Source: Psammoneis japonica
Lineage: Eukaryota
NCBI GenBank assembly: GCA_008632985.1
Contig: QPGO01000256.1
Coordinates: forward strand, 1 to 64,000
Length of the DNA stretch: 64,000 nucleotides
Direction of reading: 5' to 3'
Within the stretch, counting starts at the first letter, position 1. Each line of letters begins with the position of its first letter. Below are positions 6,759 to 46,900 of the stretch, in pieces. Under the pieces are notes generated by a model. That model searched no databases. It was not told where the DNA came from and saw nothing but the letters and a program-made list of their open reading frames with translations. The position numbers and the translations under genes are program-made.

Positions 6759-7246
6759 TTCCTTGTGATCATCTGAGAGATCTTCAGCTCCAAAACTGAC
6801 AGCTCTCATGACAGTGACCATTTTGCCATTTTTTTCATCACTCTTCCCCCAGAGCATGGCAGCAGCTTTGTACCTCCCATCTGAAGGAATGTGTGGCTTC
6901 ACTGCTGGAAACAATCTTGTGCAGTGAGGTGTCAAGCACTCTTTTCCATGCTCGCGAATCTCGACTGGGTTCCTGTTGTCATGTTCAATGTCCCAAATGA
7001 GTCAAGAGCAAGGACTGTTTTTGTTTCCCTTGTTTCTGCCCTGACCAGCGTGAATCCCTCTGTGAGCATTGAAAGTCATCCGTTCAATGCTCTGTGCAAA
7101 TGGAGAATGACTCCACTGCACTTGCAATTTCTTCATCAGTGCAAATGCTTGGTGAACATCATCAGGAGATTCTGACAGTCTCAACAGTTGGGTGTTTCAA
7201 CATGCTTCCTCTGCACTGAGCAAGACAAAAGAGATGACCAGCCACA

Positions 7247-11989: not shown

Positions 11990-13850
11990 GAACAGGTGGC
12001 GCTGATGGAGTCAACACATGACAATCTAGAAAAAGAACTGCACATCAAACTGCGGCATTCTCTCTGACGGTTTGCTTGTGGACAGTCGTGAAACATCAGG
12101 GTTGTTCTTCATGGGGGAATCAGAGTTCAAGGGCTGCATCTCTGGATTGTCGTCAGTCCACTGCTCCATCAATCCACTGCCAGAGCCATTGCTGTCTGTG
12201 GAGGTCCTTGGGCCAAATGGCATGATCAACATCATGCAAGCAACCGAGAGTGGCAAGCTACAAAGTGCAACTCTCTGCCACAGGCAATTCCAAAAGCAGT
12301 GGGTGGACAGCCATTGGGAGGCAGCAGTTGTCAAGCCATGAACAGAGTGCATCTTTTTGCCCTCTTCATCTGTTTCATCATGCTTTGAGACAAGTCCGGC
12401 ACCCAAAAAGCCAACACAAGATGGAATGGCTGTGGATGCTTGGGAAGCATCCCACTCCATGGGGCCACCAACAAAAGCAAAAGCAGAACAAATCAAAAAT
12501 GAACATGATCCCAGCACCACCACCACCACCATGGCACAAATGCCAGCAGGACGATCCGACTGGCATCACTCCCATCCAACAACACCACCAAGCAAAACCA
12601 AAACTGCCAAATGACATCCAAAGTTGCATTCCTGCTCAGTTGGAAACAAAAGCTCAATCCAATGCAGGTCCCAACATGGACAATCAACAAATCTTAGATT
12701 GGTGCATTCAATGTCATGACCAATGGGCAAACAACCAGCCATCTGCTTTTGCACATCTGAGAAATGCAATCAATCACACAGAGAGTTGCCAGATGTTTGA
12801 TCCCTGCTTTTTCTGCCAGTGACAGTTGAGCTGCCAACACATTGGTCACAATGAGCCACTGGGCCCTGTTGGGCATCAGGTGCTCTGAGACATCTTTGTC
12901 TTTTGTGCTGACAAACAACAAGCCAAGAAGCAGTGGGGACAAATTTTGCAGTCACAAGGAGTCAGAGCAATGTCACACTCCTCCACTTGCTCCTCACTGC
13001 ATTCAATGCATGAAGTGACATTGTCCATTGCCATTGCATTTTTGGTGCAATCCACTGGATCGGCAGTGAGATGTGCAGGGTTTCACATTCTCCAACTCAC
13101 CATTTTCAAAGTTCAAGTCTGCAGGATGTCCACACAAGTTGAAGTTTGATCACGCAAGCCAGCAAAATCAAAAATCATTCAACAGGCAGAGGATGTCACA
13201 ACTGCACATCAGATGAGAAGGCCCAGACCTTCCACATGTGGGTGGCCAAAGAACTGTTTGTGTTAAAGAGAGAGGCCAAGTGAGCGGATGTTTGTCCCAC
13301 TGTCACCGCATTGTGCACACATGTGAGAGCTCCTGCCAACAGAGATTGGGAGAAGCCAGTCCATTGTCTCAAGTGCATGAACCAAACAAGAAACAAAGTC
13401 ATCACTGCATCAAGCGCAAAGGATCTCGGAGTTGTCAAGTGGTGTGTGGGCGCATCGTTTGCACTGACTTCTTTGAGAGCCACACACTGAAAGAGTCATG
13501 AACGTGGGCAATGGAGCAGTGCAGGCCACCTTGAAGTGCCAGAAGCTCAGCACCCAAAGCAGCACAGAAGTCAAACTTGCTGGAGTCAGCAATGCCACAT
13601 GACTGTGATGCCATGTGGACGACGAAGCTGTTCTTGGAGGAGCACCGCTAGAAGGGGCATGGTTGACAAGAACATCCTGTCTTTCTCTCTAGAGAGGCCC
13701 TCCACTGCCAGGAGCTGCTCTCTACTGCTAGAGACAGCAGTTGCCACAAGTGCAAGCATGAGCAAACGGGTCTGTTCTTCGCCCAAGTGTAATTCGACAC
13801 AAATTGTTGGATTCAGGATTCCTGATGCTCAGCCCATTTGGGCGAAAAGG
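11990..13850. repeat. TpA/CpG-eroded degenerate block B (element family not identified)
   Basis: TA and CG are strongly depleted between two intact genes, and no intact ORF is present. Confidence 0.7.
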
Positions 13851-17760: not shown

Positions 17761-19000
17761 GATTAGAATCGAAAAGGTTGCTGTTGTTGTAAGATGGAAG
17801 CAATGGTGAAATAGTCTAGCTCTACTAGAGTAGAGCCTAACTAGACCTAATAAGGTTGTACGTTGTACGGTCTGATACAGCGGTTTGGAGATTGGAGATT
17901 TGGAGGTGTGTGTGAGTTGCTTGTTGCGCGCGCGCGCGGCCAGGGGAATCGTCCCTCCGCCGCCCTCTACCGGCAGCAGCTCGCGATGCAATTCACACAT
18001 GCACTCTAACCGTCTCCGTGCAGGTGTGGAATCAAGCGCTGTTAGACTGGGGAACGTCTTTGGAAGTGAGACTGTTGAAGAAAGTTACGTAGAATTTGCA
18101 CTAAAAACAGTCTGTCAATCAGTGCGATTGGGGCATTTGGGAATGCTGGACAGATCCTGCCTGCGTGTTTTCTTGTGCTCACAAATCGCACTTGGGAAAA
18201 CCCCAAACGCGATCAGACCGCCTTCAATGATCTCACTTCCAAACATGCCCCCCATGCGCTAACTGTGCCAGGCAGTGGAACAACAGTGTGTGCAAACCGG
18301 AAGTCCACTGTCTTCACAAAAGACAATCTTGGACAGCCCTTGCGATGCCAGTTTTTTGTGTTGCTCCTCAATCTTCGCCTCCCACTGGCCAGTGCAATGA
18401 GGCACTCCTCAAGCACATTCAGCACTTGTGCTTCAAGGTCTGATGGGCACCTCTGCTCAAGGCAGGAACTTGCACCCAACTGTGTTCAAATAATTTGATT
18501 GCTTTGATTGGCTTGATTGCTTTGATTGATTTCCTGGCCTGGAGTTTGCCCACCCAAGAGGCATTGAGAGACAGATGATGTGAAGAGTCAAACTCTGGAC
18601 CTTTGAGACCATCCTTTGTAAAGACAATGGACTTGCAGGTCTTGTGCACCACTGTTCCACACAGCTGGTCGAAAGAGAAGAGGGCATCTGAGCACTCAGA
18701 GAAATCGTCAGCATGTCCTTGGGGTCAACTGTCTTGGCCAAAATGGGAGCAGCTTCGACCATGGTGCTCTCCCTCTCTGCCAAAGAAGCAGGAGTGAAAG
18801 TGACGTGCCTGTCAACAGGAACACACCACATGCCACTGTGGGCCAGTTCATGGGGGTGTGAGGGAGCATCAGTGGGCTCAGTCATCGTCTGCTCGGGGGG
18901 TCCAAGCGGAAGACTGGAGGGGGTGTGTCTGTGAAAGCAGAGAGATTTGCAGAGGTGGTGGCATCATTGGCAGGAGAATGTCTGTTGGTGTGTTGATTCA

Positions 19001-20400
19001 TCAAATGACCTTGATGCATTCCCGTCTTGCCCATTTCCTTGTTGACACACTTGTCACACCAATGCCAGGTGTTGCCTTTCTCTCATCCTGGAAGGTGGGG
19101 CCTTTGTTGACAAAGGACCATGCGGTCTTGGAAGGTTTCCCAGCTGTGGTTGGCTTGTCTGCTTCCTTGTCCATCAGCGCATCCTTGAGTTTCTCACCTG
19201 CCTTGACCTTCTGGTCTTTCTTGCACTGATCCTCACAGGCAGGACATGTGTGTTTGGTGCACCCGGCTGCACCACAGCCACAGCAATGCTTCGCCTTGAG
19301 AGGTTGGTTGGGAGCATGGTTGGATTGAGGCAGTTCAGCAGCTGGGACAGGCCAATCCTCATCACTGACAAGCTCACCATGGGTCCAGGTGATCCAACAA
19401 ACAAGACCGACTGGTCCAAGAGACACACAGTCAGCATCCTTTGGTGCCTCTGCAAGGTCGTTGAAATGACACTTGCACTCTAAGGCCTTGACAAGGTCCA
19501 GCTTGGCAAAGACTTGACAGTTGAAAAACTTGGAGGACATCTTGGATGCCTTGGTTAAAATGGTGAAACCAATTTCAACTGGTGGGGCATGGCCTGTCTG
19601 CATGATCTTCAGCAGGCAAAAAGCTTCAGTTGTTGCAATCATGGTGCATTCCTCCCCGGGGCAGGAGTCAAACATCAGATCCTTGAGTTTCTCCTTTGCA
19701 GACTTAACGTCATTGAGAGCACTTGCGTTGCACATGTCAAGCTCACAAGGAACAGTGCAGAGCCTGGCAATTTTGTGAAGTCCGAGACATGACTGAACTT
19801 GACTTCAATCTTCTTGCAAAAAGCTTCCAACACATGAGGCTTGACAAGGAGTTGGGTCAGACCAATGTTGTCCAGCTTGCATGCACTGGTCACAAGCTTT
19901 GTCACCCAAAGTTGACACTTGCAAGTTTCATGATCTTTCACAATGTCATTGACGGTGAATGCACGGAGGTTGTTAAAAAGACACATGGCTGAACTGTTGC
20001 TCTTCTTGACTTGACAAGGTCTTGGATGGTCTTCACAAAGTGATCCTTGTCCACCTTGGTTTCAGAGCTGTTGAGTAACTCAACATCACCACTGAACTTT
20101 GAAGCAGTTGTGAGGCAAGTTGGTCTCAAAGAGAATGCTCAATGGAGTTGACCGCCCTGGGATGGCAATGCTGAGATGTGCAGCTGCAGGTGTGGGAGTC
20201 TTCCTGTTTGCAATGCTTGTCCAGAAGAGAGCCACCATGGTGCACGCCATGGGACACACATGCATTCCTCAGTGCACAGGCATTGGAAGCATGGAAAATG
20301 CATTGGATGCATTCACAGCCACAAAAAACTGTTGGATGACAGCCAGATCCATTGCTGCAGCAGGGCAAGGAGCAGTCACAGCAGGAGGAGCAGGAGGAGT
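19001..20400 (-). mobile_element. Ty1/copia gag remnant with eroded zinc knuckle
   Basis: 'DSCPGEE...LKIMQTGHAPP...FFNCQVF...LGPVGL...HGELV..EDWP' followed by 'CCGCGAAGCTKHTCP', which has CX2CX4(H)X4C spacing. Confidence 0.65.
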
Positions 20401-23396
20401 GGACATGGTTCTGGATGACAAGTTGACACAGAAGATTGATTGTGGAGTTTCGACATGGAAGATCACCATCGGATCACAACACAGAAGATTGCTTTGGATG
20501 GGATGTCATCCAAGGATGATCAAGCAGCAGCAACTCCATCACAAGTTGACACCAGTGTGTTGTTGGGGTCGCAACTGCTTGGGACACAACAATGCACAGT
20601 GCAGGGGAGAGAGGAGGACTCTCTTCAGGTTGCACAACATGCACAGAGGATGATGAACAGCTGTGGGGGACAACAAAATGTTCTAAAGATGCAAATTGTG
20701 AGAAGATCTCACGGTGGTTTGGAGAGGACACTCAGACCTGATGGTCAGTTGTGTCACATGTCCTCCAGAGCCAAGCTCCTCAAAGTCACATTGGTGCTGC
20801 TGCAAGATGACCAAGTGTCCTCATTCAGCCATGCTTCAGTCCAAAGACATCCTGTCATCTCAAATGAACAAGTTGCTGGTCAGGAAAAGAGCTTGTCAAA
20901 GTCAAATGGATGATGCCAGAACTGCTCAGGCAGAAGCAGAGCAACGTGAGAAAATGAAGATGCTGGCTAGATGTGTGGCAAGGAAGCCAACACCTCCAAA
21001 TGAAACAACTCATGTTGCAAGCAGGCCAATGCCGCCAAACAAACCAACTCACTTTTCCATGCAATTTGGGTCCAAATTGTGCTCCCATCTGCCACCTTGC
21101 TGTGTGTGCATGCAACATGCAGTGCACTTTGCTGGTTGCTTCTGCCCCTGTTGCCGTTGCACATGACCCCACCAAGGACAGCTTGAGCCACAACAGCCAG
21201 TGCACAAATGGTCAATGCCACCATTTTGGGTGCAACAACATAAATTCAGCAGCCGCTCATGACAAAAACAAGCCATCCAATCAACCATGGGCATCTCTTG
21301 CCACTTCCAAAGGACAAAGTGCCTTTCCGTTGGTCTCAGACAAGTGTCTTGCACACACCCTGGGCTCACGTGATGCATTTGTTGATTCTCTGCACACCAT
21401 TGCAACTGCCAGGACTGTGGACAGATTCATTTGAGATGTCGGCAAGAGAGCCAAAAACTCTCGAGCAACTCAAAGACAGTGACACAACTGGCTTCTGCCA
21501 TTTCCACAGTCAGCTTCAAACATCAGTGTCAACAACAAAGCACTCACTGCATCATGTTTGGTGTTGCACGCTTCCTTTTTTGGGCTTGCTGGTCCAAGTG
21601 GTGGCATGTGATCTTCATGAAGCAATCCAAAATGAGCAGTCTTCACATGGCGGGGAATGTCAGATAAAAACATGGCCAAGCCATGCAGGAGCTGTCCGAT
21701 TGCTTTTTGTTCAGATTGGTTCAACCAGTGATTTGCTGCAATTGCCCAAGCACTTGGTGGCAGCAAATTCCGAGGACAGGTCACACACAGGGCAAGGTGT
21801 TGTCCCTTTTTCAACAATTTCTGCAACACTGGCACGCCAGTGTTGGAGAAATCTGTCAAGGTGATGGCACCTTCATTTTCCAACTTCCCCCCCCCCCTCA
21901 ACTGTTGTGTTTGCCTTGCGAGACCACTCACAATTTTTCAGGTTGGGCATTCTTGCTGCAAGAGACAGCTTGCGGCTTGCCAGATTTTTAGTCATGTTGT
22001 CGGTGGAGCTGCAATTCACCGGCACCCAACTTGGTGCACAATGATTTGCAGTGGTGTCCAAGCTCCAATTGAGATGAATCTGCTCGAGCAAAATTGTGGT
22101 TGGCACCCATTGGACTTGTCAGACAAATGCACCTTTGGCACTCCATTTTCATTGAGTTGTGAAAAGGGGATGGGAGTGTCTTTGGGAATGCAGTCCTGGC
22201 CCTCATTGCATCAGCCATCACCAATCGACTGTGTGACAATACACGTTGTCTCCTCACCATTTGTCACAGGCAGCTGCAGCTTGGCAGAGATGCTCTTGAT
22301 GACCATTGCCATGAAGTCCTTGTTGGGAAATGTCAAACCCAGCCAACCGGAGCTTCTTCATTCCTGTGTCACTGCCCGGACAAGTCATGTTCAGAACATT
22401 GACATTGAATTCTTTTGCAAGGGTGGCACAGGCACTGACCACCTTTTGAGACTTTGGATCTTGCACACCGGCCACTTTGGAAATTATTTTCTTGATGAGT
22501 TTCTTGTGTGCAACATGGGGGTGGAAACATTGCGGAATGGGGGCACAATCATGTGCAACTTGCAACATGCGTTGTCAACACTGTAATCCATCACAGGGTG
22601 AGACTGTGTCAACTGGAATCATGCACCACCAACCTTTTCACCATCCAAGTCATGGTGCCCATCAAAGGACAGGAATTCATGTCCCAGGAACCTGCAGCAC
22701 TCATTGGTGCACAACCAACCAGGGCCAATTGAGCAGCTCCAACCCCAGCAACAAACGCAACCGTGTGTGAGAGGAGCCAATGACTTTGATCAACTTGACA
22801 ACATGTGAAGGACCACACTCACCTCCATGCAATTGCAATGAAACATTTCACAGCAGCAGGCATTGTTGGAGAATGCATGAAAACAATGAATCATTTCCAG
22901 AAACAGGAAACCCAACACTGCACAACTGTCCTTGGCCAGTGCATTGGAGATTCTGAGAATCTCATCAAACAGTGACACCATTTGGACCAAGGGTTGGCAA
23001 TGAACAGGTGTTGTCTTGACCAAAACACTGTCAGGACAGTGGAGAGCTGCACAACCACCTTGCATCATGCAGGTGGCAGCTGGTTGTGCTCTGGTGGATC
23101 AAGCAATCACTCACCTTGCCAAAAATTCCCATCCGTTCACAACAGTCAGACACAGATTTTTTCCAACCCTCCATCATCACAGCCGTCACCATCACATTGG
23201 TGTGTTTGCACACAAATGTTTTCCATGTGTCACACAAGTCACTTGAAAAACAGCATCCCTGTGAGTCGGTGTGACAATTTGGCCTGTCTGGTCCAATGTG
23301 TGACCCATCATTTTTGTGCATCACAAAGTCAAATGAAACAAACTCAAGGTCCACCCAATCATGGATCTTCATGACAAAGTCTTTCCTTCTTGCAGG

Positions 23397-23595
23397 AAAC
23401 CAGGTTTCATCAATGAATGATTCATCAGAAAGGAGTGCAGAGTGAGCTCTCTTGCAAAGGTCATTGAATGCCAACATCAAAGAAGTGCACCAGGCAAAAC
23501 CGGGTTTCATCAATGAGTGATTCATTGGGAAGGAATGCAGAGTGAGCTCTCTTGCAAAGGTCATTGACTGCCAACATCAAAGAAGTGCACCAGGC
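23397..23595. repeat. Tandem duplication, ~100 bp unit x2
   Basis: Both units contain gtttcatcaatga.tgattcat...gcagagtgagctctcttgcaaaggtcattga.tgccaacatcaaagaagtgcaccaggca. Confidence 0.9.
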
Positions 23596-26129
23596 AGCTC
23601 CAGTCTTGAACCCTGGATGCGCAATCCCATCTTTGTTGCAATCAACACATTGGTCCCCACAAACTCCAACAGCAAATCCTCGGTTGCCCCTTGGGCCGCA
23701 TTCTGCCACAAATTTGTTCCGAGGATCCAACTCATTGTCCTTCACCATAACATCACACCACACAGATTCAAGATCAAGTGACCGGATGTCATCCTTAAAG
23801 GTCTCCTCACCAACCAATGCAAACGCCACACCCCCCCATTGCTTCAATGTGTTGTGCTTCTCAGCTTTTACCTCCGTGCATTGAACATCCAAGCAATCAC
23901 ATTTCAACTTGCAATTGTTGAGCATCGAATCACACAAAGTAAAATGAGGTGAGCACTCAAGCTTGTTTGCCATCACAGAGCCATGATCAGCTCTCTCACA
24001 TGCCAAGACATGCTTTTGTTTGCACTCATTCTTCGAGCACAGCACAGATGTCAGGAAACTTGTGCTGACAATTCTTGACTTGGCTTTCATCCTCCAGAAA
24101 GAAGCTGGGAAGAAAGTCGTGCTGACAGTTTGCTTTGCACTTCTTTTGCTTGGCAGCCTTGGCTTCCTCTGACTCCTCTTCCTCCAAGGGCTGCATCGGT
24201 GGCTTGGGATGCAGTGCATCAAGCTCCTCTTTTGCACATTGCCAAAAGACTGTGTGAGTTGAGTGGAGACATTGAAACCTCTGCTGTCATGATGGGGTTG
24301 CTCTTCATCTCTTTGCAGGTGTGCTTTTCAGTTGCTTTCTTGTGACGGTGCCAGGGGCTTGTGATGCAGCCACAGTTTGCTTTGTCACTTGACAGCCTTG
24401 GCTTTTCTTCCAATTCACAGGCTGCCAGCTCTTGCTCTGAGGGCTGCATTGGTGGCTGGCTTCAGATGCAGTGCATCAAGCTCCTCTTTTGCATGTTGCT
24501 CAAAGACAGTGTGAGTCAAGTGGAGATGTCGAAACCTCTGCTGTTGTGCTTGCTTGCTTTGCATCAATGTGGCACTGTTCTTTGCTTTCTGCTTCAATGC
24601 TGTTGGCATTGCACTGGCATTGTCAAGCATGGCAACCTTGCACAGGCGGTTTGTCAGAGAACCGCTGGGCAAGGGGTGGGAGTCAAGTGATGCAAGGGCA
24701 AGCAAAGGCAATCCGCCCACGGCAATGCTGCGTTTGAATGTTTTGCCTGGATTTGCTGTGGCTGCAACAGGAGAATCTGAATCTGATCCAACATCTCACG
24801 TGAAGTGCCTTCTGGCAATGCAGCGGTGATGGGTGCAGATGCAGGGCTGGCCATTGTTGCACATTGCTGCTGTTGCTGCAAGATTTCATGAGAGCGGCTC
24901 TTGTGTTGCGAGTCGCTCATTTTTCTGCCACGGGATGATTTCTGGCATGAATCCCATGTTGAGTTTCAAGTTGCAACAGACTGTTTGAGGTCAAAACTTT
25001 TGAAATCACTTTTTTCTTGATTTGAGGGGCTTGCTTCGTGCAAGAGGAACAAAAAGCGAGATGACCTGGTGCAGGCATTTGTGGGCAATTCACCTGTTTG
25101 CAAGACAACAGAAATGTGCCCCATCTTTGTCCTGCACAAATCCTTTTTCTTCCTCTTTCATCCAGAGAAAGCAACAGTGCTGCCAGCTGGGCTCAACCTC
25201 TCAAAATGGGGGGTGCAGGCACCATGTGCAAGACAACAGAATCACACTCAGTCTTTGCTCCTCTTTCATCCAGAGAAAGCAACAGTGCTGCCAGCTGGGC
25301 TCAACCTCTCAAAATGGGAGGTGCGGGCACCACATGCTCGAGAACAAACAACGGCCACATTCTGAGCAACAGGGCAGCCAACATCTTTGCAGGAGCATTG
25401 TGCAAAATGAGCAAAAAGGTTGCCATCCACCAAATTTGACAGCTTGCTTGATTTGACTGCATCGAACATTTGCTGCTGGCTGGCAAACTTTGCCCTGGCC
25501 CCAACCCATTGTCTTTTTTCATCCCAGGCATTTTCAAAAATCTTTTGCAGCTTTTGTTCAGTGCCCAGCACTCAACACACATTTGACTGCAAACAAGTCC
25601 CTTTTCTTGCCATGTTCAATGTGGAGATCACTGAATTTGCAATGCATCAACGTCAGCAAGGAAGGACATTTGAGTCACAGACACACTTCCACAGCTTGGT
25701 TTTGCTCTTGTTCAACCCAAATTGTCCCCTGCTTCAAAGGATGCCATGGAGCTGCAACCATGCTGCAGCAGACAAAAGCGCCGACTGTCAGTGCACCAGC
25801 ATCTGTTTCACACCAGCACACTCACACAAAGCAAAGGAGACCAGCTCAACTTGGTGGCAGGCTCAGCAAGGGAGCTGGAGAGTGTCACCACATCAGAGAT
25901 GATCTTGCACTCCTCTTCTTCCTGGCTGGTGAAAGCCTTGATGCTGAGTGGCTTGCAAGATGAGCTCTTGAAGCAGTGCGTCTAAATTGTTGTTGTGGTT
26001 GCTGCCCCACTTCTTGACATCGCCAAGCTTCTTGAGGTCCACATGTTTCTGGCCTTCATTGCAGGCAGCGAGGTTGGCAAGGGCGCACATTTCTTCCTGG
26101 CTGTCCATGACTTCCTCCACGAGCTGGAC

Positions 26130-26520
26130 CCTCAGAGAAATTTGGGCAATGGTCGGACACCATTGCACTCACCCACGAAACGGCCATGGTGGAGGTCATG
26201 TTGAAACAGCAAGAACTTTGCTGGAAATGGAAGCAAACATTGAGGCAAGAGACTGCCGAGGAAATGCCACATTGAGCTGTGCAACCTCAATCAGCAAGGC
26301 GATCGTAGACTTGCTGCTTGATCATGGAGCCAGTGTCAGCGCAGTTGATGACAGAGGACGGCTGCCGATTCATGGCACCACATGGCAGTGGGGCAATCAT
26401 GACACTGCTTTGCGGCTGCTGAAAGTTCACATGCAACAGTTGCAGGCAAGCAAAAATGTTCACCCTTGCATCTTTGCATGCGCCATCGCCACAGTCGGAC
26501 ACATTGCCGAACATGGAAAT
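26130..26520 (+). pseudogene. Ankyrin-repeat gene remnant
   Basis: 'GRTPLH' frameshifts into 'GGHVETARTLLEMEANIEARD...AIVDLLLDHGASVSAVDDRGRLPIH'. Confidence 0.75.
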
Positions 26521-27676: not shown

Positions 27677-27779
27677 TGATGTTTGCCAACGAGAGTTCTT
27701 GGCTTTTTCCAGCATTTTGTCAGCAAATCGCATGGTGATGGCACTGTTCATCTTCACAATCGCCCGTCGAATGTGAGAA

Positions 27780-30100
27780 GAAAAATGAACTTTTTCTTTT
27801 GAGCTGCCTTTTCCACTTTAATTTTTCAGAAGAAAAATGAACTTTTTCTTTTGAACTGTCTTTTCCACTTTAATTTTTCGTTGCATCGTCTCAGAAGCAC
27901 CGCTCTTCTCAACTGAACTTTTTCTTTTGAACTGTCTTTTCCACTTTAATTTTTCGTTGCATCGTCTCAGAAGCACCGCTCTTCTCAACTGGGATTCTTG
28001 CCATTTCTGGGCACCGCTCATCTTGTGATTCTCACAGTTGCCATTTCTGGGTTTTGTCTTTTTCTGCCCATCTCAGGCATTTTAAAAAATCTTCTTGTTG
28101 CTTTTTGTTTGATCAACTCTGTCCATTTTGGGCTGCGACGATGCCACAGTGCAGACCAGTTTGATGACACTGTGCTGTTGGGCAGAATTTTGTGACAACT
28201 TGGCCATTGGTCTGGCACTGAGGTCCAGCACAGAGGCGACTTCAGAGGAGGATGCTGTCGTCAATCCTCAGCTTGAATCTTTGGCATTGCACAACTTCCA
28301 GTTGCTGTCCGAGTGGCTGCAGCAGCTCGAAACAATGGAGCGATGATGTCTCAGAAGCACCGCTCTTCTCAACTGAACTTTTTCTTTTGAACTGTCTTTT
28401 CCACTTTAATTTTTCGTTGCATCGTCTCAGAAGCACCGCTCTTCTCAACTGGGATTCTTGCCATTTCTGGGCACCGCTCATCTTGTGATTCTCACAGTTG
28501 CCATTTCTGGGTTTTGTCTTTTTCTGCCCATCTCAGGCATTTTAAAAAATCTTCCAGCGGTGCAGACTGGTTTGCTGCGCTGTTGGGTGGAGCAAGAGGG
28601 TGTCTTCCGTTGCAAAAACACAATGTTTGACAACTTAGCAGTTGGGCGACAAACATGTTTGACAACTTGGCAGTTGGGCAGTTGGTCCAGCACTGAGGTC
28701 CAGCACTGAGGCAACTTCAAAGCATGGTGCTGTGAGCCCTCTGCTTGAATCTTGGGCATTTCAGTTGGGGTGCAGACTGGTTTGCTGTGCTGTTGGGCAG
28801 AGTGAGAGGGGTGTCTGTTGCAACTGATGCTGTCAGCCCTCCTCTGCTTGAATCTCAGGCATTTCAGTTGGAGCACACAACTTCTGGTTCTATTTTTCCA
28901 TGTTTGAAGAAGGCACTGGTGTGTCCAACTGCTGCCATCTGCACATGTGTTTGCATCTCATAGATTTTAAAAACATTTGAGAAGATTTTGTTGAATCATC
29001 TGTTGTGGAATCTTCATGGTCTATTTTGAACTGCTTTGTCTTTGCCTTTTTCACTTTTGTCTTTCATTGCATCAGCTCCAAAGCAACATTCATCTTGATG
29101 CCATTGTTGCCATTTCTGGGTTTTGTAATTTTTGTTCATCTTAAGCATTTTCATCTTTGAGTTGTTGACCAAAATTAGGTGCGTGGGGTTGGAAGGGAGA
29201 AAAATCAAAGCGAAAAAGGATTTGACTACCTTGCCTTTGGCATGCTTCTCTGTTCCGCACCAATCCTTTTTCTTCCTCTTTCATCCAGAGAAAGCAACAG
29301 TGCTGCCAGCTGGTCTCAACCTCTCAAAATGGGAGGTGCGGGCACCACATGCTCGAGAACGAACAACGGCCACATTCTGAGCAACAGGGCAGCCCAGATC
29401 TTTGCAGGAGCATTGTGAAAAACGAGCAAAAATGACACCATCCACCAAATTTGGTGGCATGCTTGACCACATCGAACATTGTCTTTTTTTCATCCAAGGC
29501 ATTTTCATTAATCTTTTGCAGCTTTTGTTGAATAATCTCTGTTGTCGAATCTTCATTTGCTTTGAACTGCCTTAGTCATTTTAATTTTTTGTTGTCATTT
29601 CTGGGTTTTGACTTTTTCTGTTCATCTCAGGCATTTTAAAACTCTTCTTGTTGCTTTTTGTTTAATCATCTCTGTCCATTTTGGGCTGTGATGATGCTGT
29701 GGTGTAGACTAGTTTGATTGATGCGCTGTTGGGCAGAGTGAGAGGGGGTCTGTTGCAACCACATACAATGCTGCAACAACTTGGCATTTGGGTGTTTGGT
29801 CTAGGACTGAGATACAGCACAGAGGCGACTTCAGAGGAGGCTATCAGTCCTCAGCTTGAATCTTTGGCATTTCAGTTGGAGCGTATATTTTCTGGTTGCT
29901 GTTCTTTCCTTATTTTAAAGAGAGCACTGGTGGGTCCAACTGTTGCCATTTCTGCACATTTTTTTTCTTCTCATGGATTTTCAAAAATCTTTGCGCAGAT
30001 TGTTGTTGAATCATCTCTGTCTATTTTGGGCTGTTTCATATCAGCCCTTTCTATTTTGATTTTATTTGCATCATCTAGACAGTATATTTCATACGTAATT
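27780..30100. repeat. Complex array of partial direct repeats; a related copy lies at ~25140-25560
   Basis: 27888-28093 is repeated essentially identically at 28348-28553. The module gtg(c/t)agac..gtttg occurs four times. 29263-29480 matches 25141-25465. Confidence 0.85.
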
Positions 30101-37667: not shown

Positions 37668-39779
37668 GCTACTGTACACTTCTTGTTGTATTGAATTAGT
37701 CGTGAGATTGGGGTAAACAGGAGTATGTCTTGTTGAGGAGAGAGAATTACCAGTCTAGAGAGAATGCGGGAAGTATTATGCAGCCCTGAGATCTCAAAAG
37801 CCGTCGGCCATCAGCGGCAGTTGGGTGTCATGGCGTGATGCGTGATGTGATCTTCATTCTGCGCGATTGGATCTATTCGAAGGGTTCAAATTCTGCTATC
37901 TTTGCCTTTTTGTCCGCGTAATATCTTCAACATGCTGAGTGTTTCCGTGCGGACTTGTCTGTGTACGGTTCGTCTGCTCGTCCATCCGCACGAGGCAAAT
38001 GCACAAAGCTCGGACCTCGACAACGCAGAGACGTCACAGTCGGCAGCACTCGGTTTTTGCGTGCGTTTTGGACGGCTGCCGTAAAGCGTACGTAGGAATT
38101 GGCAACAATTTTGGAAACGGAGAGCTGCCAATGCGTTTGTTCTACATGCAAAATCATGGTGACACAAAAATGACAGCAGTCGTCGAGAAATTGAGCAACG
38201 GTCATGACACACAAAATCTCTCGGACGCATTTTTTTCTTTCGCATTGGTTTTTCATCACAACTCGCAGTCTCTCACAATGCCAAACCGTGGCTGCCCAGG
38301 ATCATGGCTCACCCTTCCTGTGGACAATGGAGAGCTCTCTCTTGTTTGGCACTCCACACCAGCTCGTCATGCTTGATGACGTGTTGTCTCCAGGTGGTGC
38401 AGGTGTTGCCAGCCAAGTCCGGAGGTCGGGGCAAATCGAGCTCATGTCTCCATCCTGGAGTCCATGTTTCTCCAGTTCATCAGCTGTCCCGATTTTGCCA
38501 ACCAGCGAAGTCCCGTCGACTGCCCCTTTTCTGCTCGGCCAGCTGACATGACGACCAACCCTTTGACGGAACCCGCCGCATTTCCCTCTGCAATGCCAAG
38601 TGCAGCTTGTGGTGACATGCCATCAAAAGCGCTGTCAGCTGAACCAAGCAATGTTTGGAAGCACTGTGCAAGATTTACAAGGGAAAACAGAGAGTTGACC
38701 AAAGATTCGCTTCGATGGGATTTGCCATTGCCAGGAGCCACTGCTGGGGCCAAGCCATTTCTTTCCTTGTCATTTTGTGACATCTGCTTTCTCGCAAGTT
38801 GTTTTCTGGCTGCGCTTTCCCCACTCCATCCCCGTCACCTGAAGATGCGCAAAAGCTCAAGCTCCATCTTTTGACGGTGCTTTTGAGGAAATGTCATCCC
38901 ACTCGACCGATTTCAACAGCTGCCTTTGACGTTGGCATGTTTCAATTTGTTTGAAACACGCTTTTGACCTTTGCAACAGAAGTGGAAATGCCAAAAGCAC
39001 AGCATGGCAATGTTTGTTGGCATGTTGTTGATTCCATGTGCGCGTCAATGGCCGCGGTGCTTGCGATGTCATTGCATGCTTTGTTGTCATGGTTTCTGTT
39101 TTTGCACCACACTTCTCTTTTTCTTTCAGGTTGGGTCCACGCTGGGGCATTCGTTGTGGTGCTCCCCCAAGGCTTGTCATTGATGTGCGGTGTTGGACTG
39201 TTTTGGCGCTGATTGCCTGCACATTTTATGGATTCGTCACGTTCACTTGTTGTCAGGGAGTTTCAAGTGTTCTGCGAAACAGCGGAGCTCTAGAGCAGAA
39301 GAGTGCATCTTGTTTTGTGTGAGTGGAGCTTGTCAGCTGTTCCATTGTTGTGTCAGTTGCTGGTGGTGGCCTTGTTGGGAGTGCGACAAAAGAGTGCTCC
39401 CGTTGTGAAACGAATTCATGCGGGCCGTCTCGGCTCAGTTGTCTTTCGACAATCTCAACTGTGTGGGGTTTTGTCTGATGAGTGCACTCCAATCTCCGAA
39501 CTGTCCATCGAGAAGCAGCAGCTTGTTCTTGTTGTTGTTCATTCGAACGTCACTCACTGGCTTGTCTCCTGCAAATGTGCATCCAATGCGCACTTGCGGA
39601 AAGACACCAGACTGGTTGAATGCCTGTGAGGACCAAAAGGACCAGCATGCTGGAAGCAAATGAGACAACCACGTGGGGTGCTGCGGACGATTCCGGGTTT
39701 GCATTGGGGTGCGCCGTGGGTGATGGAGAGGGGCTTTCGCCAGGCTGCTGCTCTCCAGGTGTAGACGTCTCTCCATTGC

Positions 39780-41320
39780 CTTCGGGAACGGGTTCTGGGA
39801 TTGGATCTTGAGGCGCATTCTCAAACAAATCAAACGCAGTAAATGCGGAATCAAAATTGCCGCGATTCGGGCAGATGTTGTCAAAATCTTCAGCCTTGCT
39901 GATGCCGGTCCATTGCGCAACTGTTCTCAGACATGTCCGAAGGATGCTCTCCCAAGATTCTGCCACCCTTGACGGCTCCGCCAGCCACAAAGTGGTTGCC
40001 GCCCCAGGCATGATCCGTGCCATCGCCAGAGTTTTGAGAGAGTGTCCGACCAAATTCCGACGTTTGTAATGTGACCACATTGTCCCACAAATCCATGGAT
40101 TTCAGTTCCTTGACGAGACCTTGAATGCCAGAGTTAACCATGCTAAATAAATTTTTCAAATTCACCTCGACATCTGAGTGCGCATCAAAGCCACCCAGTT
40201 CTCTACAAAGAAAAATTCAGCATCTGTTCCACGCGTGTGTCGAGTCTGCATCATCTTTGAAACAATGTCGAATTTCCGTCCCAACTCGGTGTCACCAAAA
40301 TCGGATGTTACTTCGGCACCCTCGAGTGCCGCGTGGAGCTCTTCATTTTGAAAGAGCGATTCAATCAAACATTTTGACCATGTCTTGGCCATAAAGCCGC
40401 CATCCAGGGCAGTGGCATTGTTGAGATTTTTGATTGCAGCAATCATTTCGGATCTGCTCATGGTGGCTGCATCTTGTGGCATGAACTGGCAGACTCCATT
40501 CTGACTGACAACGTACGGGGTTGGTGATTGACCAGGGATCCCAGCCAAGACACTGGATGTTGCATCCAAAGTGGCAGAAGCAGCAGTTACACCACTTTTC
40601 CCCAGTGCATCAGTCAAACGTCCCAGCACACCCACGCCAGCGGATTCTCTGAAAACATCTAAAGCTCATGTCTCGCATTGCACAGTGTTGTGAGCAAACA
40701 GTTGCGTCGGTGTGTTGAATCTGTGGTTTGACTTTGTAGAGCTCTTGGGAGACGAGGTCTCCGTGTTGTACAGGTCTTGAACAATGGGCAGCTCTTCGTG
40801 GACACCAAAGGTGCTGCAGCCCACCTGCCCGCTGGCGTCAATTGGAAGAAGGTTCTCCGGCAAGAGATGCACGGGGTTTTGACTTTCAGCATGATGTGTG
40901 CATGCGTCGACGCCGCCATCATCCGCAGAGCATTCGTTGGGGACGAGCATGTTGAAAGAATTGCATCCTCCCACCAGCATGAGAACAACAACTGCCTTGA
41001 ACTCATTCACACTGGGCGGGGGAGGAAGGATCTCTGGCAGAGATTCCGCTGTCTGCTTTGCTGCATTGGTTGTGTGGCATTCCCCAGCAGTGGTGATCAA
41101 TTGTTGTGCCACACGCAAGCCAGCACGTGCATCAACGTCAACCACCGCAGCATCGAAAGCAGCAGCAATGTGTTTCCTGTTCTCGGTGCTGAGCCTTCCT
41201 GATGTCAGAAGAGTGGCAAGCTCATCGACAATTGCTTCGGAAGTTTCACCCGAGGGTTCACACATCAACATTCCTGAAGCTCTGCTAAACTTCCCGTTGT
41301 CCCGGCAGCCTCCGCACAAT
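39780..41320 (-). pseudogene. DUF1501-family gene remnant, frameshifted
   Basis: 'IVDELATLLTSGRLS', 'KAVVVLMLVGGCNSFNMLVP', 'GVLGRLTDAL' and 'SEFGRTLSQNSGDGTDHAWGGNHFVAGGAVKGGRILGEHP' are spread over at least three frames. Confidence 0.8.
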
Positions 41321-43046
41321 GCGAAGCATGGTCAGTGGCATCATTGTCATGTGGGCTCTGAACAACCGTGCTCACATCATGGCCAATCGCATCCTCTCCA
41401 ATGCATCCAGAAGTTCCATGATTGTTCATTTTACTGTTGTGGCACAAAATGTCTTGCAGCAAGCCAAAGTGATTTTTCTGGTCCTTCACAATGTCATAAA
41501 ATGCAGTTCGTGGTGACACCCGTTCTCCTTTTTCTAGTCTTTCGTGGTGCCTGAAACGACGTGTTGGGCACACAGCTGCCAGCTTGCCAGGGTCTAGACA
41601 CCAGTCTGCATGAAATTGAGAGAGTGCGCAAATGCAACTTCCACACATTCAGCCTCCCTGTCCTCCACCCATTGCATGAACCACTGTGAGAGCCATGTGC
41701 ATGGAACTTCCTTGTGTCCGTTCTGCCTTTTTTCGCTTGCTGTGCAATTCTGCCAAAACTCTTTCTTCCGCGTGTGTTTCTCCTTGACCTTTTCGACTGA
41801 TTCGAATTGCTTCATGTGCAAGCATGCTTTCTTTGCCAGATGCATCTGTTTCTAAAATTTCAGCACCAGCCCAAAAACCTCCCGATTGAAATCCCGTGTA
41901 TCCACTGTTCCAATGCACACTGAAAGGGCCATCAAAGAGAGAAGACTGTCAAGAAAGACATTCAGACTTGGTTCCTTTTTAGTTGAATTTTTAGTCGAAA
42001 GAACTTTGCCCTTCGAGGGTGCAATCAGAGTCGCTTTCCAGGCATCTTGTTTCCTTTCCAAGAACTCAACAAATCCCTCTGTCAATCTGAATCCTGAGCC
42101 TTGGGAGCAAGGACTCAGAACCATGTCTTTGTAAATGGAGTGGCACTCTGCTTGCAAAACATGGTTTTCAATGTCGCCTTTGGCATTCTTGCAAATCCAG
42201 AATTTCTGCCATGGGTTTTCTCCAGAAAAAAACATCTTTTCATCCCCAGTGTCATGCCAGGCATGTTCACACACACCTTGAATCTTGTCTTTTGAATTGG
42301 TGCCAAGCATCCAAAGGTCACGTGGTTCTGGGTTTCCGTTTTCATCTACATTTTCAGCTTCTTGCATTGCAACTTGCCAATCATTTGCCACAAAGGCACT
42401 CTCAAAACTTTCACAGTTTTTGTTGTTTGGAAAGACAATGCAGGCCTTGATGGATCCCTCTGCAGCATCAGAAGGAACATTGTTCCTGGCTTGTTGGAGA
42501 ACCTCTTCAAAGGTGACGGAACTCCTGCTGGCATTTGATGACTCCAGTTTGGCATCCTCTTGTTGTTGTTCCTTTCGAGACTTTGACTGTTGCAGTTTCT
42601 TCTTTCTCGGCATCATTTTTGCATCACAAGAACCACTCCTTTTGGTTGCGTTTGAGTGTTCCCTGCTGGCTTCAGGCACTCTTTGATTGGCATCCCTTGT
42701 GGAAGCATCCCGACATCGAGGGGGGAGTTCAATGCCAGGCAACCAGAGCGCTGTCCACCCACTCGGTTTGTTGGGTGGAGGACCACTCTACAAAGCTTTC
42801 CTCTCCATCTTCTTTGAGAAGAAAAGCCTGATGCTCTGTCTTTCCCTGTGGCACCCACACAAATTTCTTCTTGCTGCTCATGGGTTTTTGTTCTTCACAC
42901 ATGTGTGCACCAATGGCCGATTGTTTTGTTGATTTGTTGTTTGTGTTCCAGCTTTGACTTCAAGGTGCGTGGTGTGTTGGAGGGCACACTCATGGCCCAA
43001 TTTGGAGCGATGGACCTTCTTTTTCCACACATGCAACACAATGCTG

Positions 43047-43950
43047 CACTCAGCACCTTAAAAAATCCAGCACCCAAAAGGCCAGAAAAGTCAGCACCTT
43101 TGTTCATTTTCAGCACCTTTTAAAAACGGCTTAAAAATCCAGCACCTTTTCAAAAACAAAGTGTCTTCAAACACCTTGTTTTTCACATGCGCATTGCATG
43201 AATTGACCAAAACAAGCCATGTTTTCACTGCGCTGTGAGGCGGGTTCCATCCTGGCAGGTGGGGCTCCGTGTGACATTGGGCCCGTAGAATTCTGTGTGC
43301 GAGCTCTGCAGCAAATTTGTCAAGCAATGAAAACACAAATGATCGCCAACAGAAAAAGAGGCAATTTTACGATGCATCTTTTCCTTCACACTTGCAGCAC
43401 ATCATCTCAACAGTTTGCCAGAGCATGTTCTGCAGACATCAAAGAATGTGCCCAGAGCATTTTCAATCTCACAAATGATGAAAATGGAAAGCTTTTGGTT
43501 TCACAAAATGGGAAGCATGAGATAATTTTGTAGAATGTCACACGCAAAAACCTGCGTGCGTGACATGCGGCATGGTCCAAAAAACTCTTGATGTCACAGT
43601 GCAGTGGTGCGAGGTCCCACCCAGAGAGCTGGAATGCATCGTGAGTCATTTGTGGAAAAAAGCCATGAGTGGCAACTGCCATTCGTTAAGTGCAATTGAG
43701 GTGTTTTGGCACCCAAGTCTCTTCTTGAGTTTGTCGGAAACAATGCGTGGGATGATCTTGCAAAGCAACCTCCGTGCTGGAGCATCTCAACAGCAAGCAG
43801 TGTTTGCACCATTTTCACAATTTCCATTGGGTGCTGAGCACAGGCGGTGGCCTCGAATTTGCAGGAATGCAGAAAATTTTCAAGGTGCTGGAAATTAAAA
43901 AACAAGGTGCTGGTTTTCTTTTGAAGTGCTGGTTTTTAAGGTGCCAAGTG
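43047..43950. mobile_element. Eroded TIR element (~900 bp), possibly Tc1/mariner-type
   Basis: Left end CACTcaGCACCTTAAAAAatCCAGCAC matches the reverse complement of the right end CACTtgGCACCTTAAAAACCAGCAC. Subterminal CAGCACC repeats occur at both ends. Flanks are TG and CA. Confidence 0.7.
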
Positions 43951-46900
43951 CAAATTTGTTTGCACAACAGCAGCCACTGCATCAAGAACAGAAGGTCGTT
44001 CAACAGCTTTCATTTTCAACAGCTTTCATTTTCAACAGCTCACAATTTTTCAATTTTCCCATGCTCAGCTGTGTTGTCTCATGTTGCCTGTTGTCAGGTC
44101 AGCGTCAATGAGGGTGTGGCCCAACAGCATGTCTCCCACTTGTGCATCAATGGAGGAGGGTGCCGCTGGGGTGCTTTCTGCCACCAGCAAGGCACCATCT
44201 GCACCTGCTCTTCCAGTGATGCTGCTGCTGCTGAAGCCACCATTTCCAAAAGTGCTGGAGGCCAAGGCTGCTGAAAAGGTGGGAGTGCCCTTGCTCAGCT
44301 CATCTTGCAACTCAGCTGAAGAGCTCACAGAGGGGGCTGAACCTTGCCGCCAAGTGCCGCCATGCAATGGCAAGCAGGGGTGGCATCACACATTTGCAAG
44401 CTCCTGAAATGACAGCTTCTTTCAAGGAAAAATTGCTGGTGAAGCCAAACGCCCCAGCTGGAAAGCAAGAGTGGTGGATGGCAACAGGAGTGCACAAATT
44501 GTCCTGAAAAGGCACAACCTGAAAGCTGTGGAAGAGACAAAAGGCAAATTGTGCTGCTGGTGCTGGTGTCATCATCCTGACTCACAGATGACCAGGACAA
44601 GACCTTCAGCCTTGCACGTGGGCACCCCCAGCCACCTCCAAAAGAGGTGCTCAGCCATGAGAGGGAGCCCTGTCTTCAGCTGCACATCATGGCAAGTTTC
44701 CAGCCAAGGTGGCATGCACCACCATTGAAGCCAAAGGTTGTTCACTCACCATGTGTTGCTTCTGAACAGGGGCCCCTGGAGGGGGCACATCAAAGCTGGA
44801 CATCCCCAGCACAAGCAGGCTGGCCTCTGGTGGTCTTCACCCTTTTGGATTTTCATCTGACCCAGGAAGAGCAGAGGGGCACCAGTTGACCCCATTGACA
44901 TTCCCACCTGTCTGAGGGAGAGCAAGGCAGATCAATTGAGTGGGTTTTGTGCCAGACAACAAAAGAGACAATTGGGCAGAGCATGTTGAAAACCAAGAAA
45001 TTTTTTTGTTGGCTTGAGAAAAGGGCTGCTCAAAGAATTGAGAAGTTTCCTTTGGGCAGGCTGGTTTGAAATGCTTGCGGTCATTGTCGGGTGTCAATGT
45101 GGCTTCTTTCTCATGTGCCATCATCCCTGTTGCTTTGTCAGAAGGGTCTCAATCATGTTGGACCAGATGGGCAGAGATGGTGTCAAGAGCAGTTGGTCCA
45201 GCAGCTGGTCCCTTCTTTCTTTCAGAAAAGAAGGAGAGCTGGATTGTGCTGGCATGCAAGCGAGACCATTGATGACACAAGACGAGCACTGCTGGATCAC
45301 TGATGAACTCATTTCCAGTCCAAGGGAGGACAATCTCCCACTGTTGGAAGCACATGCTTTCCTCATCAGGCAAGTCATTCTCTTGCCAAGTTTCACAGAT
45401 GGGAAAAGCCTTGCCACTTTGTGAACTCAGAGGAGCCTGACAATGGAGAGCTGTGCCCTCCCCACTGCCACTTTATTTTCATTGCTGATTCTTCCAGGCC
45501 ACTTGCTTGGAATCTGTTTTTGAACAAATTTGGCTTGACAGGGTGGCTGCTGAAATTTGCACTGTTGGCCCCGAAGTGTTGTGGAACACCTCAGCACTGC
45601 AGTCATGACAATGAGCACAGCACCAACCACAGCATTTGCTGCATGACAACAGTGCAGGACACTGCAGGACACTGCACCACTGCAGACCTTGACAAGGCAA
45701 AAGTCCATGGGGAAAGTCCTCCTTCATGAAGAGAGCTGCAAAGCAGGTTTTGTGCTGCTGGTGCCAGCCCAAGTGGAGGTCTCTGCCTTCTTTGCACAGC
45801 TTGGTGAGAGGAGGATGGGGATGACTTGCACCTCATCAATCTGGGGTTGTCATCATGAGATCTACAGTTTGTTGTGGTGAGGTGTTGATGAGTTGTGCAA
45901 ACTGAAGACATGCCTCATGACGTGTGGAGCAGTGGTCAATTTGTTGCACAAGACAAGACACTGTGAGATTGCTTGCAGCACCTGTTTGTGTGTGTCATGC
46001 ACCAACATTGGCTCCGTCTTGGCAAGCACCTGCAATCTGTCTCTGTGCCTTTTTTCTGCAGCGCAGGTCCACGCTTTTCTGTGATGAGTTGTCAGCCAGA
46101 CATGCCACAGGAGCCAAAGATGCACCTCAGTGTGTGCCTCAAGATGCGCTTCATGCAGCAATCTCAGCAAGAGCATTTTTTTTTCAATGGTTGCCAACAA
46201 TGCCCCCCTCTTCTCCCATCCAAAGTTGCTGTGGTCTTTGCCACCCTGGCTGCTCATGTCATTTTGTGCCCAGTTCTCAGGCACTCCAATGGCACCAGTG
46301 TCAGCATTTGTCATTGTCTCACCCACAATGTGTGTTCAACAATGCAGGTTGAGAGTCATCTCCTTTCTCCAGTCTGACACTGCTGCTGGTGCTGAGCCAG
46401 TGATTTTTTCCTCCTCAACTGCTCAAGAAAGTGGTTTGGCTTCATGAGCCAGTTGCTCTGGGTGCAGCCAAGCAGAAAAGAAATTTGGATTTAGCCAGCT
46501 TGCATCTTGTCACATTGTTTTGCAAAAGTGCACTTGACCATGTGGACATGGGTGTGTGCTTTGGGTGGGCACTTGCATTTGAAAACCTGAGCAGAGAAAG
46601 TGCAAATGGCTGAGCTGTGCAGTGTTGCATGCTGCCAACACAGCAGATGCCATGGCAACCAGTGCTCACTGAGATGACACCTGTGCCAATGCAATTATGA
46701 TCATGGCTGTTGGGAGAGTGCAGGGGATGGCTGAGACTGCAAATTGGAGCTGCCCAAAGAACATGGTTTGCACATCACATGGATTGCACACAGCCGATGG
46801 TCACAGCACCACAGACATCACATTGCATCCCCTCTGCCACTTCATTCTCAGGTGCTGACAAAATTACAAAAGTTGAGTCATCACTCTGCTCCTTGCACCC

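Follow-up and report, generated by a model that had tools for sequence, protein, structure and literature searches.

Probable directed loss of TpA and CpG steps in sharply bounded blocks of a diatom-like nuclear contig holding old repeat copies

The window analysed here is a stretch of 64,000 nucleotides (positions 1 to 64,000, forward strand) of contig QPGO01000256.1 from the Psammoneis japonica assembly GCA_008632985.1. Judged by its gene content, it is eukaryotic and belongs to a diatom-like nuclear genome. The window is a mosaic in which about 34 of the 64 kb (33.9 kb, roughly half) lie in sharply bounded blocks depleted of the dinucleotides TpA (TA) and CpG (CG). One eroded sub-block contains a cluster of degenerate direct repeats at 27776-30060, for which an original prediction had proposed that sites reading TA in one copy and CA or TG in others record mutation of an ancestral TA. 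Here, we show the direction of this change, its regional confinement, its strand symmetry and its dependence on the neighbouring base. TA and CG steps have very probably been converted into CA and TG by a regionally directed process in blocks which hold old paralogs.

The repeat cluster and its four copies

The features of the cluster and of two duplicated segments connected with it are as follows:

27776..30060, plus strand: degenerate direct-repeat cluster with four copies of a 250-430 nt module and tandem units
27776-27991, within the cluster: tandem units of 52 and 76 nt
28037..28347, plus strand: copy c1, with gtgCAgacCAgtttg at 28149, tttGatca at 28108 and ggtcTGg at 28209
28497..28768, plus strand: copy c2, with gtgCAgacTGgtttg at 28560 and ggtcCAg at 28684
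28745..29010, plus strand: copy c3, with gtgCAgacTGgtttg at 28770 and gagCACACA at 28871
29591..30025, plus strand: copy c4, the least eroded, with gtgTAgacTAgtttg at 29702 and gagCGTATA at 29879
27888..28094, plus strand: 207-nt segment, identical to 28348-28554
29247..29529, plus strand: duplicate, about 90% identical to 25124-25558 in the neighbouring fully depleted block

All strings quoted in the original prediction were located at their positions by script match to the window, including tttAatca at 29661 and ggtcTAg at 29798 in c4. The four motif copies are true paralogs, as had been assumed: BLAST pairs among them reach 73-81% identity, a repeat-family search also groups them, and they could be aligned with each other (alignment A1, copies c1-c4). 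The degenerate pattern GTGYRGACYRGTTTG has exactly four matches with zero mismatches in the window (28149, 28560, 28770 and 29702). With at most two mismatches there are 10 matches compared with 2.16 expected, a number reached in 0 of 100 shuffles. The TA and CG sites of the 207-nt segment are the same in both of its copies and unaltered, and its identity results from recent duplication or conversion. Because c1 and c2 share this segment, duplications of different age, old as well as recent, are combined in the cluster. Part of the differences between 29247-29529 and 25124-25558 are CA<->TG double changes.

In A1, 22 columns vary among TA, CA, TG and CG. TA is present in 10 columns, in 9 of which it is borne by c4; CA and TG are split between copies in 10 columns and CG is kept in 6. 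The predicted sites with the three states TA, CA and TG are found in columns 121 (CA,TG,TG,TA) and 248 (TG,CA,-,TA), while column 294 shows all four states (CG,TG,CA,TA) and ggtcCAg at 28684 adds a state that had not been listed before. The pair gagCGTATA/gagCACACA, which had been offered as a further case of TA mutation, consists of real strings and includes one site derived from CG. Some of the CA/TG splits descend from CG, because CpG decay runs in the same block. Parsimony points to a TA root in columns 121 and 248 alone. Columns of the type CA,CA,CA,TA are ambiguous, because TA is nearly private to c4 and the pairwise distances of the copies (17-30%) are roughly star-like. Between c1 and c4, 23 of 38 transitions fall inside pyrimidine-purine (YR) steps by hand count, compared with about 44.5% expected from the YR content, an excess which is mild and weak on its own.

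On its right side the eroded sub-block passes through a transition zone, and this is where c4 lies. TA is found 15 times in 27700-29500 (observed/expected ratio, o/e, 0.11), 17 in 29501-30030 (0.40) and 96 in 30031-31500 (0.70), which agrees with the earlier remark that the least eroded copy is the one nearest to the block edge.

The pattern seen in the four copies is generalised by the duplicates found inside the blocks. For this comparison, 16 in-window repeat pairs were used, some of them overlapping, with 2565 aligned nt and 178 transitions. Adjacent CA<->TG double transitions occur 33 times compared with 3.4 expected under independence, the 16 pairs being not fully independent. The other three classes of dinucleotide doubles are at or below expectation (4 vs 3.4, 3 vs 4.4 and 1 vs 3.6). 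Doubles of this kind are what two copies should show if each received the same self-complementary TA or CG and lost it on its own.

No Pfam family scored above the cut-off in the 42 open reading frames (ORFs) of 26300-33700. Rfam and tRNA scans of the window as well as a scan of metagenome contigs with the repeat pattern gave 0 matches. A contig of 1656 nt from a public sequencing run spans 29365-31020 with 0 differences. In one further contig from public runs, 28800 is followed by 21 other letters and then by 28222. These letters hold several CG where the window repeat has CA/TG, and therefore another repeat copy or allele keeps CpG sites that are lost in the window.

Composition, context rule and gene relics of the depleted blocks

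The five depleted blocks, which make up the 33.9 kb, and the smaller, partly eroded sub-block are located at the following positions:

1..8400: depleted block
12000..13600: depleted block between two intact genes, containing a relic of the MgtC family
18100..26400: depleted block with an ankyrin-like relic at its right end
27700..29500: eroded sub-block with the repeat copies, TpA o/e 0.11, CpG o/e 0.40
38000..49000: depleted block containing a DUF1800/DUF1501 relic
55000..59600: depleted block containing a reverse-transcriptase relic

Across the five blocks, o/e ranges from 0 to 0.2 for TpA and mostly from 0 to 0.4 for CpG, compared with 0.4-0.8 and about 1 in gene stretches. Over the 33.9 kb of block DNA, TA makes up 0.39% (o/e 0.06) and CG 1.46% (o/e 0.24) of the dinucleotides, with CA at o/e 1.80, TG at o/e 1.75 and a CA+TG share of 22.18%. 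In 26.3 kb of normal DNA the corresponding values are 4.17% (o/e 0.58) for TA, 5.18% (o/e 0.97) for CG and 15.07% for CA+TG (CA/TG o/e 1.21). The gain in CA+TG of 7.1 points matches the loss of 3.8 points in TA plus 3.7 points in CG. The sum of the four YR dinucleotides is steady (24.0% in blocks vs 24.4% in normal DNA), and the remaining twelve dinucleotides shift by at most 1.3 points. This composition is the outcome expected from two transition processes in YR steps, TA->CA/TG and CG->CA/TG. GC-biased gene conversion was considered and rejected, with a GC content of 0.49 in blocks vs 0.46 outside and unchanged AA/TT and AT steps.

The two losses do not always proceed together. In 38000-41500, TpA is at o/e 0.03-0.2 while CpG is mostly retained at o/e 0.53-0.86. 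The TA and CG processes are therefore separable and TA loss can run ahead, which suggests that TA loss either outpaces the decay of methylated CpG or does not depend on it.

The depletion is regional. Intact genes, with 3002 codons analysed, show no similar loss where codons can vary: for TA, the o/e values at codon positions 2-3 and 3-1 are 0.58 and 0.64, and for CG they are 0.81 and 0.90. The non-coding DNA of 30000-33600 and spacers between intact genes, e.g. 16871-17266, are TA-normal as well. Block edges are sharp (100-500 bp), and one block of 1.6 kb lies between two intact genes. Contigs from public runs were mapped to 11800-31700 at 80% likeness, at which most blocks are low-copy. The high-copy repeats of 26408-27735 (depth 2146-4941 vs about 60 for single-copy DNA) and of 30392-31700 (depth 639-871) are mostly normal in TA and CG. 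These repeats may be young insertions which have escaped the mutation so far. A third segment, 17776-18439, is also high-copy, the three together covering depths of 640-4940 vs about 60. The high-copy repeats directly abut eroded DNA and are without a Pfam domain.

Both strands are affected to a similar degree. Counts of CA and TG per strand are similar in most block kilobases, and the residual asymmetry follows base skew. In 57001-59000, where the plus strand is strongly C-rich (GC skew -0.41 to -0.43), CA exceeds TG (155 vs 87 and 142 vs 91); a single N is present at 57090.

The extent of the loss depends on sequence context. The ratio TA/(CA+TG) within blocks, taken with the same flanks, is 0 for ATAT (0/393), 0.0025 for ATAG, 0.0034 for ATAC, 0.0095 for GTAC, 0.020 for CTAG and 0.047 for TTAA. 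Sorted by the base 3' of the A, it rises from TAT (0.014) over TAC (0.025) and TAG (0.034) to TAA (0.071). The same ranking is obtained when survival is measured against gene DNA, and mixed contexts are roughly additive in our own arithmetic on these survival ratios. In 27700-29500, 8 of the 15 surviving TA are TTAA, compared with 9 of 96 and 7 of 73 in the flanks. Copy c4 still has TA in the fast contexts ATAC and ATAT and is therefore little exposed rather than half-eroded.

An effect on gene prediction follows from the composition. Of the 153 ORFs of at least 110 amino acids in the window, 105 lie in depleted blocks, in all six frames. TA-free DNA lacks the stops TAA and TAG, so that nearly all long block ORFs are spurious. 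When the 105 were searched against Pfam, MgtC alone scored above the cut-off. Three relics of genes were nevertheless recognised:

12029..12750, minus strand: MgtC-family relic with an in-frame TGA, no Tyr and an excess of Cys, His, Gln and Trp
40165..41331, minus strand: DUF1800/DUF1501-type relic with an in-frame TGA and its C-terminal part in another frame
58002..59084, plus strand: reverse-transcriptase-relic ORF, residues 196-357 of which match the region just upstream of, and entering, RVT_1 of retroelement proteins

The in-frame TGA of the MgtC relic stands at a position where 39 homologs have Arg. The DUF relic was identified through homologs only, the best one matching at E 2e-73 with 40% identity; the matched proteins carry PF07394/PF08811, and the relic itself gives 0 Pfam families even at E<=1. 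The reverse-transcriptase-like ORF has 68 relatives, and RVT_1 was found in 13 of the 14 relatives tested. This supersedes a sub-threshold lead from an atlas search (RVT_1 in 22% of the cluster, score 0.83). Read-through frames of 55001-60004 gave no Pfam family above the cut-off. At the right end of the block 18100-26400, an ORF at 25972-26724 on the plus strand has a weak ankyrin-repeat signal (E 9e-5 to 2e-4) and is possibly another eroded gene relic.

The three relics were aligned with their homologs, and conserved Tyr and Arg columns were scored. No amino acid other than Tyr has TA in each of its codons. At 13 conserved Tyr columns the relics have His 4, Cys 2, Phe 4, Val 2 and Tyr 1 times. 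His and Cys thus occur at 6 of 13 columns, compared with 1.6% of the homolog residues there (binomial P 3e-8). Among the 27 columns with conserved Arg, 14 have Cys, His, Gln, Trp or a stop in the relics and 10 have Arg, which shows that CpG decay is active in the blocks. The DUF1501 relic, situated in 38000-41500, retains 6 of 9 conserved Arg. The MgtC relic contains 0 Tyr. In the DUF relic, Tyr amounts to 0.5%, less than the minimum of 1.4% among its homologs, and Cys is above the homolog maximum in both relics.

A second copy of the MgtC sequence, about 85% identical, was found among the contigs from public runs at a depth of 55, vs 60 for the window copy. Between 12029 and 12605, the copies differ by 39 differences, 26 of them transitions, among the differences listed (40 of 719 places), a scope which also holds for the following counts. 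At 13 of the 26 transitions a CG of the other copy corresponds to TG/CA in the window, at 8 a TA does so, and the remaining 5 lie in other contexts. At sites conserved in 47 homologs where the copies differ, the other copy has the conserved residue. It keeps the Ile at 12391, invariant in 47/47 homologs (T|ATC vs T|GTC in the window), the conserved Arg at 12565 and 12568 and the Ala at 12433. At 12040 it has the stop TAG and the window CAG. Since the other copy holds the conserved residues, it is the window copy that is derived and has undergone erosion, with TA as the ancestral state there.

Genes in the window code for a CLC channel, a MUS81-type nuclease, an organellar-type L11, a cGMP-kinase-like protein and a delta carbonic anhydrase. 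Named relatives of the MUS81 protein are from Seminavis, Cylindrotheca and Amphora at 42-45% identity (best matches 53-54%), those of MgtC include Epithemia, Seminavis and Attheya, and the closest carbonic-anhydrase clusters in a protein atlas are labelled Bacillariophyta. Contigs from public runs join 14827 to 16772, omitting 1944 bases of the MUS81 ORF, and in another, 14047 is linked to 17326 with a change of strand. A second, diverged version of the MUS81 locus is therefore present in the sample. In a related metagenome contig of a diatom-like organism, the 800 bp from 1800 to 2600 contain 6 CG but 21 TA, which is CpG decay without TA loss.

Direction of change, rival explanations and proposed mechanism

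The direction from TA to CA or TG, as originally proposed, is supported mainly by evidence from outside the four copies, namely the replacement of Tyr by His and Cys in the relics, the second MgtC copy with its 47 homologs, the dinucleotide balance and a result from the alga Bigelowiella natans described below. The scenario named as its opposite was CpG decay alone, with CG as ancestor at the three-state sites and TA in the copy at 29702 made by two C->T steps. CpG decay certainly takes place here, as proved for the blocks by the conserved Arg columns; CpG o/e is 0.32 over 28081-29900, and 6 columns of A1 hold CG beside CA/TG, column 294 showing it together with all other states. However, decay of this kind alone predicts a gain of TA, and the eroded DNA is nearly TA-free instead of TA-enriched (o/e 0.06). 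Copy c4 would need about 9 double steps yet retains 3 CG sites, 38000-41500 has lost TA and kept most CG, and the changes of Tyr to His or Cys as well as the Ile site at 12391 start from TA and not from CG. We regard this scenario as extremely improbable. The same holds for the opposite direction of change, in which C->T mutation resembling repeat-induced point mutation (RIP) of fungi would have made the TA of the 29702 copy from ancestral CA/TG. A star-like tree with columns such as CA,CA,CA,TA would then need one change if TA is derived, and RIP is the classical repeat-directed mutator, also cited as such in a recent preprint (bioRxiv 10.64898/2026.01.13.699255). Yet c4 is not enriched in TA: its o/e of 0.40 is below that of the flanking unaffected DNA (0.70-0.84), and CA/TG are still in excess. 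Columns 121 and 248 would need extra double changes, blocks throughout the window lose TA and gain CA/TG, and sites polarised by outgroups go from TA to CA/TG, so that such an origin of TA is hardly credible.

An untargeted neutral mutation bias acting on the whole genome, with normal DNA being under selection or too young to have decayed, would fit the dead genes and the dead retroelement in the blocks as well as the partly high-copy and hence possibly young state of the normal non-coding DNA near the repeat cluster. It is unlikely in view of TA and CG levels at synonymous and codon-boundary positions of intact genes, which are near the ordinary eukaryotic level, of TA-normal short intergenic spacers, of edges of 100-500 bp and of the 1.6-kb block between intact genes. 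Selection against TA or CG words, such as avoidance of a nuclease or of a transposon targeting TA/TTAA, is formally compatible with extreme depletion, and word avoidance of similar strength occurs in phage genomes. The blocks are dead, however, with in-frame stops, frameshifts and 104 of 105 ORFs without a Pfam signal; TTAA survives best, the opposite of TTAA avoidance, and the changes destroy conserved residues. Selection without directed mutation is thus very unlikely. A-to-I and C-to-U editing of RNA followed by reverse transcription could have delivered pre-edited insertions, and one block does contain a reverse-transcriptase relic. A 5' U preference is described as typical of ADAR, an adenosine deaminase acting on RNA, in the preprint (bioRxiv 10.64898/2026.01.13.699255). 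Editing of RNA would leave one-sided A->G changes, while CA is about equal to TG per strand in most blocks; this small asymmetry does not fit an ADAR-type signature. In addition, the relics decayed in place, the edges are sharp and tandem duplicates have diverged by CA<->TG after their duplication, all of which indicates change of DNA in situ. ADARs are generally considered metazoan enzymes. Pre-edited insertions are therefore exceedingly improbable. Finally, modified bases, which the blocks probably carry, might have been miscalled systematically during sequencing or assembly. We consider this practically negligible, given that contigs from public runs match the blocks with 0-4 differences over pieces of 1.4-2.8 kb, that the relics also show the transversions, indels and frameshifts of real decay, and that the depletion respects gene boundaries and is graded by sequence context.

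For a regionally directed process in the blocks, the following course of events is proposed. The four copies are old paralogs of a non-coding repeat inside a sharply bounded eroded block, in which two processes have probably acted: A->G change on either strand, turning TpA into TpG or CpA, and ordinary decay of methylated cytosine, turning CpG into TpG or CpA. Both would be near completion in the blocks and both would end in CA/TG. A shared ancestral TA or CG would thereby have become CA in one copy and TG in another, with the marginal c4 retaining TA. The TpA process is regional and similar on both strands, with a speed set by the 3' base (TAT > TAC > TAG > TAA), and it strikes silent DNA of several origins, comprising a retroelement relic, dead host-type genes and anonymous repeats. 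We infer that chromatin in a silent or methylated state acts as the trigger.

The chemistry most likely to be involved, put forward here tentatively, is enzymatic deamination of adenine to inosine in DNA. In its simplest form, silent chromatin would be attacked on both strands by an enzyme requiring a 5' T and preferring a 3' pyrimidine, in parallel with the usual deamination of 5-methylcytosine at CpG. The footprint would be no different if instead the T of the TpA on the other strand were modified and misrepaired. The tRNA target of ADAT enzymes, A34, follows U33, which would give a TA context. An ADAT-type enzyme with activity on DNA is known from amphioxus, where BjADAT2/3 edits DNA, the enzyme class being able to deaminate both A and C (PMC10354150). 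DNA editing has also been described for trypanosome ADAT2, as cited in bioRxiv 10.64898/2026.01.13.699255. No deaminase gene lies within the 64-kb window. In a broader perspective, diatoms, or at any rate the present lineage, may possess a DNA editing system targeted to chromatin domains which, together with 5-methylcytosine decay, erases all TA and CG steps of silenced DNA and which would have acted on about half of the window. It would be a stramenopile counterpart of RIP with opposite chemistry and, given the same signature in a rhizarian, perhaps an old and widespread genome defence. We see in this a genuine possibility which falls somewhat short of being probable. Under such an editing system, the rule TAT>TAC>TAG>TAA would be the footprint of a specific DNA adenine deaminase or of a thymine-modifying enzyme.

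Several points weigh against a directed process of this kind or against parts of the proposal. What this organism provides is a sequence footprint and not a measured mutation, and the four repeat copies by themselves say almost nothing about polarity. The conserved Tyr columns also contain Phe (4) and Val (2), neither of which the TpA rule would yield. At tetranucleotide resolution, loss and gain per flank are uncorrelated (r = -0.51). Block and gene DNA therefore differed in their starting composition and survival ratios based on genes are approximate, so dinucleotide totals and the TA/(CA+TG) ratio within blocks were used as evidence and not the tetranucleotide balance. The confirming contigs from public runs may share data with the assembly. 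At 14 MUS81 loci of other diatom-like organisms from metagenomes no TA-depleted blocks were found, the lowest TA o/e in any 500-bp bin being 0.27; as these contigs are short and gene-dense, this is weak evidence of absence. No viral domain was detected in 105+42 ORFs and 9 read-through frames, unlike the targets in B. natans. Furthermore, the DNA contexts reported for BjADAT2, which prefers hairpin loops, are GAA (for A) and TCG (for C), and its adenine context is thus not TA as here (PMC10354150).

Comparison with known systems

The decay of methylated CpG in mosaically methylated genomes has a partly comparable outcome. The blocks, which would be the methylated compartments, resemble it in their CpG o/e of 0.24 with an excess of TpG/CpA, next to genes near 1, and in the change of conserved Arg to Cys, His, Gln, Trp or stop. 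Such decay cannot remove TA, however, and in 38000-41500 the loss of TA is ahead of that of CpG.

Fungal RIP, the analogue in function, is similar in being regional and in ruining silent or duplicated DNA by dinucleotide-specific transitions, and the MgtC target described here has a second copy. The chemistry is reversed: RIP turns CpA into TpA, so that TA goes up and CA/TG go down, whereas the RIP indices of the blocks are TpA/ApT 0.01-0.14 and (CpA+TpG)/(ApC+GpT) about 1.9-2.3, the opposite of RIP. RIP is triggered by duplication. In the window, the MgtC relic has a second copy, the high-copy DNA of 26408-27735 is unaffected and most blocks are low-copy at 80% likeness.

The closest likeness is to Bigelowiella natans, a chlorarachniophyte and hence a rhizarian, while the window is diatom-like. 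The following data are taken from the B. natans preprint (Mettrop et al., bioRxiv 10.64898/2026.01.13.699255). In mutation-accumulation lines, 230 of 231 mutations in two hypermutable regions of integrated virus were A->G/T->C, and all 230 of these lay on TpA. The genome contains 124 clusters depleted in TpA and enriched in CpA+TpG. The giant virus and the virophage integrated in this genome are the proven targets, and depletion is modest, with a Rho TpA of 0.45 in the virus region; many affected ORFs are without annotation, and reverse-transcriptase and transposase domains are enriched. An ADAT2-like deaminase is proposed in the preprint (bioRxiv 10.64898/2026.01.13.699255).

Both cases share the change of TpA to TpG/CpA on both strands and the confinement to regions within an otherwise normal genome. 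The differences concern degree, targets and type of evidence. The value of 0.45 in the virus region compares with a TpA o/e of 0.06 in about half of the window. In the window, the DNA affected comprises a retroelement relic, dead genes of host type and anonymous repeats, with no viral hallmark detected, and two of the block relics belong to families with named diatom proteins (MgtC) or unnamed proteins (DUF1501) as relatives. CpG loss accompanies TpA loss in the window, and the term CpG occurs 0 times in the main text of the preprint. Mutation rates were measured in B. natans, whereas the window offers a footprint, from which a rule for the 3' neighbour was derived. In the literature covered, which lay mostly outside subscription journals, no report of a TpA-loss signature in diatoms was found.

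A regional mutator acting on TpA only was first shown in 2026, in one chlorarachniophyte. Long spurious ORFs in TA-free DNA are a trap for annotation which misleads gene callers, and relics losing Tyr and Arg escape profile searches. A simple composition screen, based on the loss of TA+CG balanced by a gain of CA+TG and on CA<->TG splits between duplicates, can be applied to any genome, and the quantitative 3'-neighbour rule is now available for testing candidate enzymes. The analogy suggests that the phenomenon in the window is of the same kind as the TpA hypermutation of B. natans. If so, the process would not be confined to one species, would have progressed much further in a diatom-like genome and would extend in its targets beyond integrated viruses to the relics of retroelements and host genes.

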